From contig JBIPLF010000005.1 in assembly GCA_044368015.1 (NCBI GenBank), positions 2,985 through 66,984 of the forward strand: 64,000 nucleotides of DNA, read 5' to 3'. This stretch comes from Rickettsiales bacterium. GTDB taxonomy: Bacteria > Pseudomonadota > Alphaproteobacteria > Rickettsiales > RI-342. The notes beneath the pieces were generated by a model. That model was given only the letters and a program-made list of their open reading frames with translations, had not been told where the DNA came from and did no database searches. This document shows positions 2,518-5,678 of this stretch, one piece after another. The translations under genes were made by a program, and so were the position numbers. Every line of letters begins with the position of its first letter. Position 1 is the stretch's first letter.

Positions 2518-3540
2518 TCAGTGTTTAGTGTTTCCGTTGAGGTTGTGCGCATTGTATTTCTGAATATTTTCAGGAGTTAAGCAGGCTGTCACCCGTTGTG
2601 ACGAATCAGCGTCCGCAAGATCCAGATCTGCCAATATATAGGAGCCGCGTCTGGCTTTCTGAGCATCTATCCGTCCAAAGGGGGCGATAACGGTACCATT
2701 TATCTCACACGACTGGAGGATTGCCTGTACGCTCTCGGCATTCTGAGGATTCCATGGATTCACAATCAGGGCTTCCGATTTTCTTACCAACGCATCTATA
2801 CGGCTGGCAATGTGATCGTAGAGCGCCTCGTTTTCTTCCATCCCTTGCATTTCCTCTCCCAGAGCAAAACCCAATGCGTTGTTGTGAAGATCCATAATCG
2901 TGGCGGCAAGAATTGCATTTCTTTCTGTCTCATTAAGAGGCGAAATCTGTGGGAATGCCTTCTCGTTAAGATTGAACAGATATTGCTGCACCGCTTCTGG
3001 ATTGGTTTGCAAAATGGCAAACCCTTCGTGAGCGTCCATTGCCGCTTTGGCAATATCACGCCCGTAGCGCATTGTTAATACACAGGTCACGAAAATATGG
3101 CGGTAAGCATCTCCGTACTCCGATAGTGGTGGATCGATGATATGGAAAAACGAAGATGGATCGCCTTCAGTAAAATCCGCTACACGCCTCCTGCAGGATC
3201 GTGTGTAATACCCTTCCCCCAAAGCACCGATTTGATCCACCTCCTCCATTGCATGCCACAGGCGTTCCTTTACCTCTTGCTTGAATTCACGGAAGTCGTC
3301 ACGAAGCAGGGTATGATAATTGCTGAGCGTCTGGTAAAAACTATCCTTATCCCACCCCGCTCCAGAAACGACCTGATTCCACACGTTACCAGCAGTGGCT
3401 CCAAACACTTCTGGTAAATCCAAATGATCCACAACAAAACGATAATAGGGAGTAATCAGCTCCACTGCGCTGCGTATCTTGCCAAACGGGGAGTCATCCA
3501 CAGACATAGGAAGGCCAGAGTTTATCTTGCACCCCCTCAC
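2518..3540 (-). CDS. Hypothetical protein, possibly DUF6973-like
   Basis: 340-aa ORF, last gene of the VirB2-like operon, with visibly lower G+C. The motif string DAYRH...AHE...MDLHNNALG resembles my memory of DUF6973. The start is uncertain (GTG 3540 or ATG 3507), and neither has an SD. Confidence 0.6.
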   Translation of the reverse strand: MRGCKINSGLPMSVDDSPFGKIRSAVELITPYYRFVVDHLDLPEVFGATAGNVWNQVVSGAGWDKDSFYQTLSNYHTLLRDDFREFKQEVKERLWHAMEEVDQIGALGEGYYTRSCRRRVADFTEGDPSSFFHIIDPPLSEYGDAYRHIFVTCVLTMRYGRDIAKAAMDAHEGFAILQTNPEAVQQYLFNLNEKAFPQISPLNETERNAILAATIMDLHNNALGFALGEEMQGMEENEALYDHIASRIDALVRKSEALIVNPWNPQNAESVQAILQSCEINGTVIAPFGRIDAQKARRGSYILADLDLADADSSQRVTACLTPENIQKYNAHNLNGNTKH

Positions 3541-3577
3541 CGTATCACAAAATGATGTAAGATATATTAACGAGGCA

Positions 3578-4018
3578 TTATTCCGTTACCGGGGCATAGA
3601 GATCAACCCGCGCCGCCTCTTCTTTTGCCAAACGCAGGAAATAGCGGTCGCACGCCCCCAGCTCGCCACCAGAGGTATAATAGGTAAAGCGCATAATCGC
3701 ATAGGCCAACGCAATAACGGTACCAACCAAACCAAACATCGGCCAGGTCATTTTGCCAAAAATCGCGCAATAGAGCAGAATCGCCGTGACCGTGATGATA
3801 ATCACAGCCCCCCACCCTTTCACGAAGAAATGCAACTCCTCGCAATATTCCGGGGCTTGATCATACTGTTCCTGTTCGTCTTGCAACCGCTCCTGCGTTG
3901 CAAACGGGTCGGCAGCAGTCGGAGCCGCCCAAGAGGGAACGGCAGAGAACAGCATAAAAAGAGAAAGGAGAAGGCACCGAAGTGCCTTCCCCCCATACTG
4001 TTGCAAAGTATGCAGCAT
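3578..4018 (-). CDS. Small secreted membrane protein, possible third VirB2/TrbC-like paralog
   Basis: Start trimmed to ATG 4018 (MLHTLQQ...), 5 nt after the upstream stop. It has a signal peptide (LLLSLFMLFSAVPSWAAP), an acidic stretch, and two TM helices joined by FGKMTW, comparable to VirB2 FGRASL. Confidence 0.55.
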   Translation of the reverse strand: MLHTLQQYGGKALRCLLLSLFMLFSAVPSWAAPTAADPFATQERLQDEQEQYDQAPEYCEELHFFVKGWGAVIIITVTAILLYCAIFGKMTWPMFGLVGTVIALAYAIMRFTYYTSGGELGACDRYFLRLAKEEAARVDLYAPVTE

Positions 4019-4023
4019 ACGAA

Positions 4024-4329
4024 TTAAGCGCAGCCTCCAAATCCCAGCACGCCCATAATGGCGGGTGCTGAGAAGATGACGATGATACCGATACAAATCA
4101 TCACCACCATACCCCAAGAGACGCGAGCAAGCAAGGCCCCAATACCAAGCGTCACGACGGCAAGGCTGGCGATGGCGATACCGGCGTCACCGGTGATCAG
4201 GGTCAGAGCGGCGCAGAGTGGTGCTTGGAACACCTGTGCAGATGCCAGTTCCGGCATCATCACGGCAAGGGCTGCAAGGGCAAACATCACGGTTTTGGTT
4301 AAGTGGGTACGTAGCATCATTTCCTCCAT
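4024..4329 (-). CDS. VirB2/TrbC-type pilin-like protein
   Basis: 101 aa with a long signal peptide ending ASAQ. The core LCAALTLITGDAGIAIASLAVVTLGIGALLARVSWGMVVMICIGIIVIFSA parallels recalled A. tumefaciens VirB2 (ICTFILGPFGQSLAVLGIVAIGISWMFGRASLGLVAGVVGGIVIMFGA). Confidence 0.7.
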   Translation of the reverse strand: MEEMMLRTHLTKTVMFALAALAVMMPELASAQVFQAPLCAALTLITGDAGIAIASLAVVTLGIGALLARVSWGMVVMICIGIIVIFSAPAIMGVLGFGGCA

Positions 4330-4403
4330 TGGTTACTTCGTTTTGGTTAACATAAACTCTTTCGTTTCGTCCGCGCTCCTCCAGGTTACGCGGGTGGAAC
4401 AGA

Positions 4404-5678
4404 TCAATTGGGTACCAACCGCCTAAGGCAACGCGCCCGCCCATCAGCCCCGATTGCAACATACCAACCAGCGGCCAACTGAGCTGGTGTGCATACGGCA
4501 GCAGGCATCGGTGCAATCAGCTTACGGCACACGGGCTGCCCATCACTTCCCAGCTTGGGCGAACCATCCGGGTTCAACTGAGAGGGGGTACATACCGGCA
4601 GCACGGGCTGTGATCCAGACAACTTGCGGCACACGGGCTGACCATCGGCCCCGATGATCGGGTTACCACTGGCATCCAATTGGAAGCTGCGGCAAACAGG
4701 CAACAGCGTATCACAAACTTTCAGGCCATCGGCATCCAACACATAACTACCATCCGGATTTGTCTTATACTTGGCACATGCTTTCTGCACTTTTTCGCAT
4801 ATAGGCCTGCCATTGGCATCCAACACCGGCTTGCCATCCGTACCTAGCTTGTACTTTGCGCAGGTAAGAGAGGTCACCTTGCATACAGGATCACCGTTGG
4901 CATCCACCGCAGGGCTACCATCCGCTCCAATTTGCGAGGGAGCGCAACTGGGCAGTTGTTTTTGACACACAGGCGCCCCATTGGCATCGGTCACCGGATT
5001 GCCGTTGGCATCGAGCTGATTTTGAGCGCAAATGGGGCGTACCCCAAATTTTTTGCATTTTGGCTTGCCGTTAGCATCCAAAACCGGATTTCCTGCGGCA
5101 TCCAATTCGTATTGGAAACAAAGGGTGGTAGGCGTAGTCAGGACAAGACAAATCGGTTTACCGTTAGCATCTAGACGCTGTGATCCATCAGGATTGGTGG
5201 CCCATTTCCCGCATACAGGAGCAGGCGCCGCACCGGGCGTTCCGAAGGGAGACGGACTCACACCGGGAGTTGCCAGAGGCTTTGGCGCAAGCGTGATAGC
5301 ACCGATGGGACTCCCCGTCATACCCGGCGTCGAACAGAGGGCGGAAACGCCGAATACTTGCGTCGCAATTTGCGAGGCCGACGCCATGATGATAATCCCG
5401 CAGAGGGTAATCACCACCATCCCCCAGGAAACACGGCTGTAAAGCGCCAGCAAACCAAGCGTTACCACTCCGGCAGACGCGACCGCAGGCCCCATATCCA
5501 GCACGACCAGATCCACCACATCGCAAATCAGCGCGGCGAGTGCCTGCGCATGGGCGACGTGCGCCCCGGCAAGAAAAAAGGTAACTCCCAAGGCCAGCAC
5601 CAATCCCGCCTGAGCGGCGCATGTCCGGCGGGAATGCTTCCGGTTTTGCATTTGCGATGGGTTCACTGCTTTTGTCAT
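4404..5678 (-). CDS. VirB2/TrbC-like pilin domain fused to a Pro-rich linker and 9 Cys-pair repeats
   Basis: 424 aa with SD AAGGTAGGGG. The N-terminus (signal peptide ending AHAQA, then LICDVV...LALYSRVSWGMVVITLCGIIIMASA) is a paralog of 4024-4329. The C-terminal ~270 aa consist of repeats C-x4-LDANGxPVxDANGxPVC. Confidence 0.75.
   Translation of the reverse strand: MTKAVNPSQMQNRKHSRRTCAAQAGLVLALGVTFFLAGAHVAHAQALAALICDVVDLVVLDMGPAVASAGVVTLGLLALYSRVSWGMVVITLCGIIIMASASQIATQVFGVSALCSTPGMTGSPIGAITLAPKPLATPGVSPSPFGTPGAAPAPVCGKWATNPDGSQRLDANGKPICLVLTTPTTLCFQYELDAAGNPVLDANGKPKCKKFGVRPICAQNQLDANGNPVTDANGAPVCQKQLPSCAPSQIGADGSPAVDANGDPVCKVTSLTCAKYKLGTDGKPVLDANGRPICEKVQKACAKYKTNPDGSYVLDADGLKVCDTLLPVCRSFQLDASGNPIIGADGQPVCRKLSGSQPVLPVCTPSQLNPDGSPKLGSDGQPVCRKLIAPMPAAVCTPAQLAAGWYVAIGADGRARCLRRLVPN

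Follow-up and report, generated by a model that had tools for sequence, protein, structure and literature searches.

Organization of the locus

The locus described here raises the question of whether a group of VirB2-like pilin genes that lies apart from any type IV secretion system (T4SS) forms a module in its own right or supplies a T4SS encoded elsewhere in the genome. Within the window, that is, the whole stretch of 64,000 nucleotides that was analysed, four co-directional minus-strand genes (g1 to g4), separated by gaps of 74, 5 and 37 nt, are flanked by dnaK on one side and by a Na/Ala symporter gene on the other (Table 1). The coordinates in the ORF list agree with the original prediction on the orientation, the gaps and the site of these genes. 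The source organism is environmental, has a G+C content of 58% and carries many biosynthetic genes. The GC3 is atypical in g3 (0.59), g4 (0.49) and the tail of g1, the value for housekeeping genes being about 0.70. No convincing minus-strand promoter was recognised by a scan of the divergent region that separates g1 from the symporter gene. Rfam and tRNA scans yielded no hit in the window, and the four proteins had no informative match in PHROGs, PADLOC or NCBIfam.

Table 1. Features of the virB2-like cluster and its surroundings, in window coordinates
Feature	Position	Strand	Description	Basis or remark
dnaK	480-2405		Flanking gene
g4	2518..3540	-	340-aa soluble DUF6973 protein, low G+C	Pfam DUF6973, hydropathy
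g3	3578..4018	-	146-aa ORF, probable divergent VirB2-like paralog	Layout, loop, cysteine spacing
Terminator-like hairpin	3956..3994	-	13-bp stem, UUCG loop and U-rich tract	Starts 30 nt past the g2 stop codon
g2	4024..4329	-	101-aa canonical VirB2/TrbC pilin	Pfam TrbC
g1	4404..5678	-	424-aa VirB2-family protein with C-terminal repeat domain	ORF; Pfam TrbC
g1, residues 156-417	4428..5213	-	Nine 22-residue C-x20-C units	Sequence
g1, residues 116-155	5214..5333	-	Pro/Gly/Ala/Ser/Thr-rich linker	Sequence
g1, residues 1-115	5334..5678	-	Long signal peptide (..AHA|Q), helix 1, YSRVSW loop, helix 2	Hydropathy and sequence
Divergent intergenic region	5679..5869		Presumed promoter region between g1 and the symporter gene	Position alone
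Na/Ala symporter gene	5870..7303	+	Synteny anchor common to L062	PF01235; context

Two genes of the cluster encode VirB2-family pilins

Comparison with the Pfam TrbC/VirB2 family (PF04956) gave 52.8 bits (E 4.9e-14) for g2 and 31.4 bits, over residues 24-106, for g1. Both scores passed the cut-off of 27.9, which bears out the earlier description of these two proteins as VirB2-like, and the loops that it had named were all present (LARVSW in g2, YSRVSW in g1 and FGKMTW in g3). By hydropathy and sequence, the g2 product combines a segment resembling a signal peptide with a hydrophobic hairpin, its best match among solved structures was A. tumefaciens VirB2 (8exh; E 0.013, at low identity), and the JGI annotation calls it 'VirB2 component (pilin)'. 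A word-indexed protein search with g2 returned itself and relatives of the L003 and L002 types only, while a tblastn search against plasmids gave no match. The comparison with the L003 ortholog yielded a dN/dS of 0.18 with a dS near 1, and g2 is under purifying selection. The hairpin that follows g2 lies inside the longer reading frame of g3, ahead of the start that JGI assigns to this gene; the 86 nt around it fold with -32 kcal/mol (z = -6.0 against shuffles).

The hydrophobic hairpin of g1 is flanked by Cys52 and Cys115, 30 residues before and 30 residues after the loop, and its VirB2 core is followed by a tail of 309 residues. The repeat units of this tail share the core xDxxGxPxxDANGxPxC and are parted by linkers of 6-12 residues, and no tandem repeat was detected at the DNA level. 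Among about 80 family members, a tail of this type was found in only one other metagenome fragment, the other members extending at most 23 residues beyond the C-terminal cysteine. The C-terminal part of g1 was kept in L003 with 57% identity, and the units of that homolog are fewer or shortened while every cysteine is retained. The original prediction was silent on the 424-aa length of g1 and on its 309-aa repeat domain. An assignment of the tail to thrombospondin-type or RHS repeats was rejected, the Pfam RHS match being below threshold, and the one weak match of the repeat in a word-indexed search, to the beta-propeller-like protein P0009, was judged to be a resemblance of motif and not homology.

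Assignment of g3 and g4

The third gene had also been predicted to encode a pilin, and this part of the prediction was upheld by the layout and the cysteine spacing of the protein and not by the profile searches. The 146-aa form of g3 shows a signal-peptide-like segment, a hydrophobic hairpin and the expected loop by hydropathy and sequence, with cysteines located 29 residues before and 32 residues after the loop. It aligns with the family at the P-x-x-A motif of the signal peptide, at a K-x-T-W loop and at both cysteines. A phmmer search with g3 against 6,400 ORFs placed VirB2-like ORFs in all of about the first 34 positions. However, the score of g3 against PF04956 was 10.8 bits (E 0.59), below the cut-off of 27.9, and its score against an HMM of the VirB2 subfamily was 12.6-13.3 bits (13.3 when the HMM was built without g3), which made it the top non-family ORF of 6,508 yet put it level with an unrelated VirB6 membrane segment. 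An exhaustive HMMER search of 1.84 billion representatives returned no homolog of g3, the hits being g3 itself and a low-complexity false hit, P0008. The structural model of g3 (pLDDT 66) is a helical hairpin, for which Foldseek found nothing below E 1 in the PDB and only spectrin-repeat noise. The possibility that g3 is a VirB3 was rejected, as it had no match to Pfam VirB3 at E <= 1. The 146-aa start itself is uncertain; the alternative start at 3955, which is the JGI call, gives a protein of 125 aa without the signal peptide.

From its sequence features, g3 is probably a third, highly diverged VirB2 paralog. A serious though less favoured possibility is that the cluster holds two pilin genes only and that g3 encodes a small membrane protein with two helices but no relation to VirB2; g3 and g4 would then have been acquired horizontally at a later time as an insert behind g1-g2 and their terminator, for instance as an effector and its membrane partner. 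Besides the tie with the VirB6 segment (at 12.6 bits), the non-significant Pfam TrbC match and the want of homologs in the exhaustive search, this reading draws on the strong terminator-like hairpin that separates g2 from the JGI start of g3 and on the lowered GC3 of g3 and g4; in addition, the positively charged C-terminal tail of the 125-aa form, which has no signal peptide, would favour the opposite topology. The agreement of the 146-aa form with the family in motif, loop and cysteine positions, together with the phmmer ranking, argues against it. This reading of g3 is compatible with the explanation that we prefer for the cluster as a whole (see below).

The fourth gene was confirmed to encode a protein of 340 aa with a lowered G+C content (0.484); an alternative start at 3507 would give 329 aa. 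Residues 142-247 of g4 matched Pfam DUF6973 (PF22322) with 32.6 bits (E 7e-8), above the family cut-off of 27, and the protein is without a hydrophobic segment by hydropathy. DUF6973 has no known function, no mention of it was found in the literature searched, and it was linked to VirB2 in no other related locus. No homolog of g4 was found: the word-indexed protein search returned g4 alone, and neither the plasmid tblastn nor the PDB sequence search gave a match. Its single-sequence AlphaFold model (pLDDT 37.6) was unusable.

Secretion machinery and VirB2 loci of related genomes

Gene calls and Pfam showed no T4SS genes in the window or in about 10 kb on each side of it, about 84 kb in all, so that the earlier statement on their absence from the 64 kb holds beyond either end as well. 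There is no virB4 next to the cluster and no VirB5-like gene at it. When 79 VirB4, VirB6, VirB8, VirB9, VirB10, VirB11 and VirD4 proteins from related genomes were compared with the whole window by tblastn, nothing significant was found, the best hit (E 0.008) lying by chance within another gene.

A scan with a wider alignment of the VirB2 subfamily found 48 genome loci, an earlier scan with another alignment having found none. All 48 belong to environmental MAGs labelled Rickettsiales or Alphaproteobacteria, the labels being the depositors' own, and the comparison with Rickettsiales made in the original prediction is apt. No plasmid relatives of the subfamily were found. The subfamily gene heads a complete virB4-virB6-virB8-virB9-virB10-virB11-virD4 operon, directly before virB4, in 19 loci, while in 24 loci one to three stand-alone virB2 copies lie among housekeeping genes, beside PEBP-NifU-SecF-RibF-LspA. 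Both types of locus are present in three MAGs (bins.290, CoA8N_M8 and RE-15aug16-6). In the nearest genome relative, L062, a symporter gene whose product is 53% identical to that of the window is divergent from virB2-virB2-virB4...virB11, and the neighbour-joining tree paired g2 and g1 with the two L062 pilins. Cysteines about 30 residues before and about 30 residues after the loop are found in about 75 of the 80 family members, and g1, g2 and g3 have this spacing in common. Conservation of the four genes as a group was confirmed for a part of them only: the g1-g2 pair is also kept in the independent assembly L003, whereas g3-like or g4-like genes recur beside VirB2 in none of the related loci.

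These results led us to interpret the cluster as a set of stand-alone VirB2 paralogs of the kind known from Rickettsiales, belonging to a Rickettsiales-like alphaproteobacterium of the environment, which serves a virB/virD4-type (P-type, rvh-like) T4SS encoded elsewhere, with a probability of about 0.6. A relocated pilin set is the most likely reading because the subfamily is found both at the head of operons and in stand-alone copies, because three genomes contain both arrangements, and because of the synteny with L062. The machinery of the present genome is assumed. Split vir loci and arrays of virB2 paralogs are an established trait of Rickettsiales (PMC3556328; bioRxiv 10.1101/2025.08.29.673095): Anaplasma has split vir loci and 8-15 virB2 paralogs (PMC3556328), and Wolbachia has three copies of virB2 and a visible pilus (bioRxiv 10.1101/2025.08.29.673095). 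Basal environmental Rickettsiales are reported to have an rvh T4SS (PMC11077975). The earlier terms 'orphan' and 'distinct filament or surface module' fit these data poorly, since the symporter-virB2-virB2 order of L062 runs on into virB4-virB11 and related genomes keep stand-alone copies alongside operons.

It is unlikely that the genome has no machinery at all and that its VirB2-like proteins act alone, either as anchors in the inner membrane that expose the g1 repeats to the periplasm or as a filament that is assembled in a different way. The lack of T4SS genes in the 84 kb would agree with such a T4SS-independent module, as would the appearance of the window, next to L062, as the head of a T4SS operon in which g3 and g4 stand where virB4-virB11 would be expected, the purifying selection that still acts on the genes, and the poor fit of the large g1 tail to normal pilin packing. 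However, the related MAGs with stand-alone copies also have a full operon where this is visible, and in Rickettsiales the vir genes are as a rule scattered (PMC3556328). Moreover, no VirB2-family protein is known to work without VirB4 and the other parts of the channel.

Very improbable is a decaying remnant of a T4SS operon that lost its function with its machinery, for although L062 suggests an ancestral symporter-virB2-virB2-virB4... arrangement, g3 is highly diverged with a terminator-like hairpin inside its longer reading frame, and the GC3 of g3, g4 and the g1 tail is atypical, all four reading frames are intact, the low dN/dS of g2 was obtained at a dS near 1, the cysteines of the g1 tail are all kept at 57% identity, and g1 and g2 are kept as a pair in L003, which was assembled independently.

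Proposed mechanism

According to the preferred reading, a pilin set serving a T4SS encoded elsewhere, g1 and g2 would be exported by Sec through their long signal peptides, with predicted cleavage at AxA|Q sites, and would then reside in the inner membrane as two-helix hairpins with the basic R-V-S-W loop in the cytoplasm, as judged from knowledge of the family. The two cysteines beside the hairpin are probably joined by a disulfide in the periplasm, which would link the two ends and be a functional analogue of the head-to-tail cyclisation of the T-pilin. Extraction of pilins by VirB4 and polymerisation of VirB2 are established in Agrobacterium, and by analogy a VirB4 ATPase encoded elsewhere would extract the pilins, which would polymerise into a pilus or stalk. 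The role of g2 would be that of a conventional pilin and that of g1 the role of a variant pilin. The tail of g1, made up of the Pro-rich linker and nine 22-residue units with putative disulfide brackets, would be exposed on the filament or on the cell, where it is a candidate for an adhesive or variable surface module. The g3 product would probably act as the third, highly diverged paralog, and the soluble DUF6973 protein g4 would be a later acquisition, with a possible role as accessory factor or substrate.

A filament of the VirB2 type would hardly accommodate 30 kDa of tail on each subunit, so that polymerisation of g1 in the manner of a normal pilin is open to doubt. It is rather unlikely that g1 represents an undescribed class of T4SS pilin with a surface adhesin tail, or else that the whole cluster has a VirB2 role independent of a T4SS. 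A pilin equipped with a 30-kDa repeat domain of its own would be a tangible case of paralog specialisation and would point to display on the surface or to adhesion, in a lineage without VirB5. The reason for the several copies of VirB2 in Rickettsiales is given as an open question in a recent preprint (bioRxiv 10.1101/2025.08.29.673095). Stand-alone virB2 loci are widespread in the environmental relatives, where they frequently occupy a single conserved position on the chromosome, and in three MAGs they coexist with an operon-borne copy.

Comparison with known systems

The T-pilin of A. tumefaciens is cyclised head to tail. Its two helices and basic loop (PDB 8exh and 8cue) align with g2, and the mature N-terminus of the window's pilins is likewise predicted to start with Gln. 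The identity is low (E 0.013), the T-pilin is encoded within the virB operon, and the subfamily of the window has instead the conserved cysteine pair flanking the hairpin, which may replace pilin cyclisation throughout the family.

The Trw system of Bartonella, with tandem variants of TrwL (VirB2) and TrwJ (VirB5), is comparable in its duplicated pilin genes, which are thought to build variable adhesive surface pili and not to add secretion capacity (PMC4676284). Its copies, however, lie within the T4SS operon, belong to a system of plasmid type and have VirB5 copies as partners, whereas the cluster has no VirB5-like gene and no plasmid relatives of it were found.

The cluster also resembles the rvh T4SS of Anaplasma, Ehrlichia and Wolbachia, in which tandem VirB2 paralogs are located apart from the main machinery loci. 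There, too, the VirB2 proteins combine a signal peptide of notable length with a pair of hydrophobic helices and a cysteine near the N-terminus (PMC3556328). The restriction of the window's subfamily to genomes labelled Rickettsiales or Alphaproteobacteria (48/48 loci) is a further likeness. The array of Anaplasma adjoins virB4-2, unlike the cluster, which has no adjacent virB4 and no machinery in about 84 kb. The rvh hosts are reduced endosymbionts, in contrast to the organism studied here, which is environmental, has 58% G+C and carries numerous biosynthetic genes, and one paralog of the window has a repeat tail of 309 aa. The stand-alone arrangement is already typical of Rickettsiales-like bacteria, and the finding extends this known pattern and is not a new system; the fusion of a pilin to a long cysteine-bracketed repeat domain is the one unusual and new element of the cluster.

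Gene content of the cluster

The ORF coordinates confirmed four minus-strand genes (g1 to g4, in transcription order) between dnaK and a symporter gene, separated by 74, 5 and 37 nt. The claim that the first two are VirB2-like was borne out by a profile check against Pfam TrbC/VirB2 (cut-off 27.9 bits), in which g2 scored 52.8 bits (E 4.9e-14) and g1 31.4 bits. The top match of g2 among solved structures was the T-pilin VirB2 of A. tumefaciens (8exh), and JGI annotates it as a VirB2 pilin.

Features of the window and of related loci
Feature	Source	Position	Strand	Description
g1	window	4404-5678	-	ORF, 424 aa; VirB2 core and C-terminal repeat part
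g2	window	4024-4329	-	ORF, 101 aa
g3	window	3578-4018	-	ORF, 146 aa
g4	window	2518-3540	-	ORF, 340 aa
Hairpin	window	3956-3994	-	terminator-like; 13-bp stem, UUCG loop, U tract; z = -6.0
dnaK	window	480-2405		one flank of the cluster
Symporter gene	window	5870-7303		Na/Ala symporter; other flank
PF07963 gene	window	7803-8732
PF07963 gene	window	28699-29841
PF07963 gene	window	39474-40478
PF07963 gene	window	40199-41344
PF07963 gene	L063	672-1460
PAP2 protein	window	10111-11760		546 aa
Amylase protein	window	32247-35438		1,063 aa
PmbA/TldD gene and neighbour	window	55854-57640		also on L001
VirB2-like ORF	L014	8963-10207		414 aa
VirB2-like ORF	L016	744-1292		182 aa
Conserved protein	L017	448-1902		~490 aa
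Conserved protein	L020	10386-11840		~490 aa
Conserved protein	L049	10414-11892		~490 aa
Conserved protein	L058	701-2173		~490 aa
Conserved protein	L063	3532-5019		~490 aa
VirB6 homolog	L062	13089-15416		775 aa

The pilin core of g1 occupies residues 1-115 only, and the original prediction was silent on the remainder. Residues 116-155 form a Pro-rich linker, beyond which lie nine units, each exactly C-x20-C with the core xDxxGxPxxDANGxPxC, spaced by linkers of 6-12 residues. No DNA-level repeat was detected in this region, which indicates that the units are old. A 682-bp ENA contig (L003) encodes an ortholog of g2 (74% identity) preceded by a g1-type Cys-repeat C-terminus, which shows the g1-g2 pair to be conserved across two assemblies. 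The dN/dS between g2 and its ortholog was 0.18, with dS near 1, and the g1 tail shared 57% identity with the L003 fragment, all cysteines being kept; together these values favour functional genes over a decaying relic. Relative to g1, the L003 tail has one shortened unit and lacks the last three, and the repeat number thus varies. The g1 fusion, known only from the window and L003, is the sole really new element.

About 75 of the 80 or so members of the subfamily (the VirB2-like ORFs of the related loci L002-L064) carry one cysteine exactly 30 residues ahead of the [KR]-V-S-W loop and a second 28-48 residues past it, 0-23 residues from the C-terminus. Both are present in g1, 30 residues before and 30 after the loop, and g1 is the only one of these members with a long tail (309 residues) past the second cysteine. 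The pair probably forms a periplasmic disulfide tying together the two ends of the hairpin. The T-pilin is cyclised, and by analogy this disulfide may substitute functionally for cyclisation. In Anaplasma VirB2, an N-terminal cysteine adjoins a hypervariable region (PMC3556328). Two ORFs, on L014 and L016, have the VirB2-like domain at their C-terminal end and lack the cysteine pair; the long stretches ahead of the domain may be genuine extensions or reflect ORFs called too far upstream.

The third gene had also been predicted to be pilin-like; its layout and loop stood, but its Pfam TrbC/VirB2 score (10.8 bits, E 0.59) fell below the cut-off. The 146-aa form of g3 aligned with the subfamily through the signal-peptide P-x-x-A motif and a K-M-T-W loop, with cysteines 29 residues before and 32 after this loop. 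It scored 13.3 bits with a subfamily HMM built without it, and a phmmer search with g3 against about 6,400 ORFs placed VirB2-like ORFs at all of the top ~34 ranks. Counting against membership, a VirB6 membrane segment scored as high as g3 with the subfamily HMM. No homologs of g3 were found among 1.84 billion representatives, and a fold search with its predicted structure gave no informative match. A strong terminator-like hairpin also speaks against membership: it begins 30 nt past the g2 stop, within the 146-aa frame, and the start chosen by JGI, just downstream of it, gives 125 aa without a signal peptide. The hairpin may act as an attenuator of g3 and g4. We consider it likely, though not proven, that g3 is a third VirB2 paralog.

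The g4 product matched Pfam DUF6973 (32.6 bits, cut-off 27) and has no hydrophobic segment. No search route used returned a homolog, and no mention of DUF6973 was found in the literature searched. The low G+C noted in the original prediction was evident at third codon positions (GC3 0.49 versus about 0.70 in adjacent housekeeping genes), which suggests later acquisition. A role as accessory factor or secreted substrate is speculation.

Other features of the window

The prepilin N-terminal methylation motif (PF07963) occurs in the products of at least four scattered window genes. These genes adjoin large proteins without a Pfam hit (471, 738 and 658 aa), and type IV pilin or pseudopilin-like proteins seem to be abundant in the lineage. 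The window also encodes a protein with alpha-amylase and glycogen-synthase-type glycosyltransferase domains, followed by a second alpha-amylase family gene, and one in which PAP2/vanadium-chloroperoxidase-like domains occur alongside weak hits to hemolysin-type calcium-binding repeats. An independent sequencing run yielded a 1.9-kb contig (L001; Logan SRR27335586) on which the products of the PmbA/TldD gene and of the adjacent gene are 100% identical to those of the window, showing that the same organism was present in that run.

Secretion machinery and related loci

The window derives from JGI metagenome 3300059473. Gene calls and precomputed Pfam hits of that metagenome (contigs of 129.5 and 202 kb), which span the whole window plus roughly 10 kb on each side, included housekeeping genes only and no type IV secretion system (T4SS) genes. 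A tblastn search of the whole window with 79 VirB4, VirB6, VirB8, VirB9, VirB10, VirB11 and VirD4 proteins of related genomes gave nothing significant, and no match at all in the g3/g4 region. The reported absence of machinery thus holds over about 84 kb.

Close homologs were scarce; on one contig of low G+C (L002), three VirB2-like genes stand in tandem. A metagenome scan added 13 loci. Scanning genomes with a broader alignment yielded 48, every one from MAGs labelled Rickettsiales, Alphaproteobacteria or (two cases) Pseudomonadota bacterium. The predicted analogy with Rickettsiales was right, more literally than had been supposed. No plasmid relatives were found.

ORFs were called at all loci, VirB2-like genes were flagged with the subfamily HMM and their neighbours were clustered. 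At 19 loci, the pilin gene lies directly ahead of Pfam-identified VirB4, VirB6, VirB8, VirB9, VirB10, VirB11 and VirD4 genes. At 24 loci, one to three tandem stand-alone pilin genes lie by PEBP, NifU, SecF, MaoC, RibF, LspA, DUF3035 and M16 peptidase genes, with no T4SS genes within the fetched flanks. At the other loci, the pilin gene has different housekeeping neighbours. In many MAGs the stand-alone gene occupies one conserved chromosomal site upstream of these genes in that order (L004, L006, L010, L013, L017-L021, L024, L025, L027, L031 and others), examples being a 1.2-Mb and a 1.43-Mb contig. A conserved protein that lacks Pfam hits and has about eight hydrophobic segments adjoins the VirB2 gene in five loci, which span stand-alone and operon contexts.

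Origin of the cluster

The nearest genome relative, an uncultured Rickettsiales MAG (L062), has a symporter 53% identical to that of the window and divergent from dedA-virB2-virB2-virB4-virB6-virB8-virB9-virB10-virB11. In a rough neighbour-joining tree of these short sequences, without support values, g2 (with L003) and g1 each paired with a different L062 pilin. The window thus resembles the start of an operon of this kind that lacks the machinery genes and has g3 and g4 instead. Such an arrangement fits a machinery that was lost or one that moved elsewhere, as is usual in Rickettsiales. We favour, with a probability of about 0.6, a relocated set of VirB2 paralogs serving a T4SS encoded elsewhere. 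In this view g2 would act as the conventional pilin, with g1 as a specialised variant displaying a disulfide-rich repeat domain.

Seven MAGs supplied two or three separate loci each; in three of them (bins.290, CoA8N_M8 and RE-15aug16-6), a full operon carrying its own pilin gene occurs in addition to a stand-alone locus. Stand-alone VirB2 paralogs are therefore common in the lineage and coexist with a complete machine. The original reading of the cluster as an orphan that may form a distinct filament is not supported and, on the roughly 84 kb covered, has a low probability.

The VirB6 homolog of L062 has a long N-terminal extension, part of which is Gly/Ser-rich and of low complexity, and so is reminiscent of the extended VirB6 paralogs in Anaplasma (PMC3556328). 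Stand-alone VirB2 paralogs together with a complete machine in related MAGs match the Rickettsiales vir pattern: Anaplasma has split vir loci and 8-15 virB2 paralogs (PMC3556328), cryo-tomography reveals a pilus in Wolbachia, whose virB2 copies number three (bioRxiv 10.1101/2025.08.29.673095), and the Rickettsiales vir homolog (rvh) system is present in basal environmental Rickettsiales (PMC11077975).
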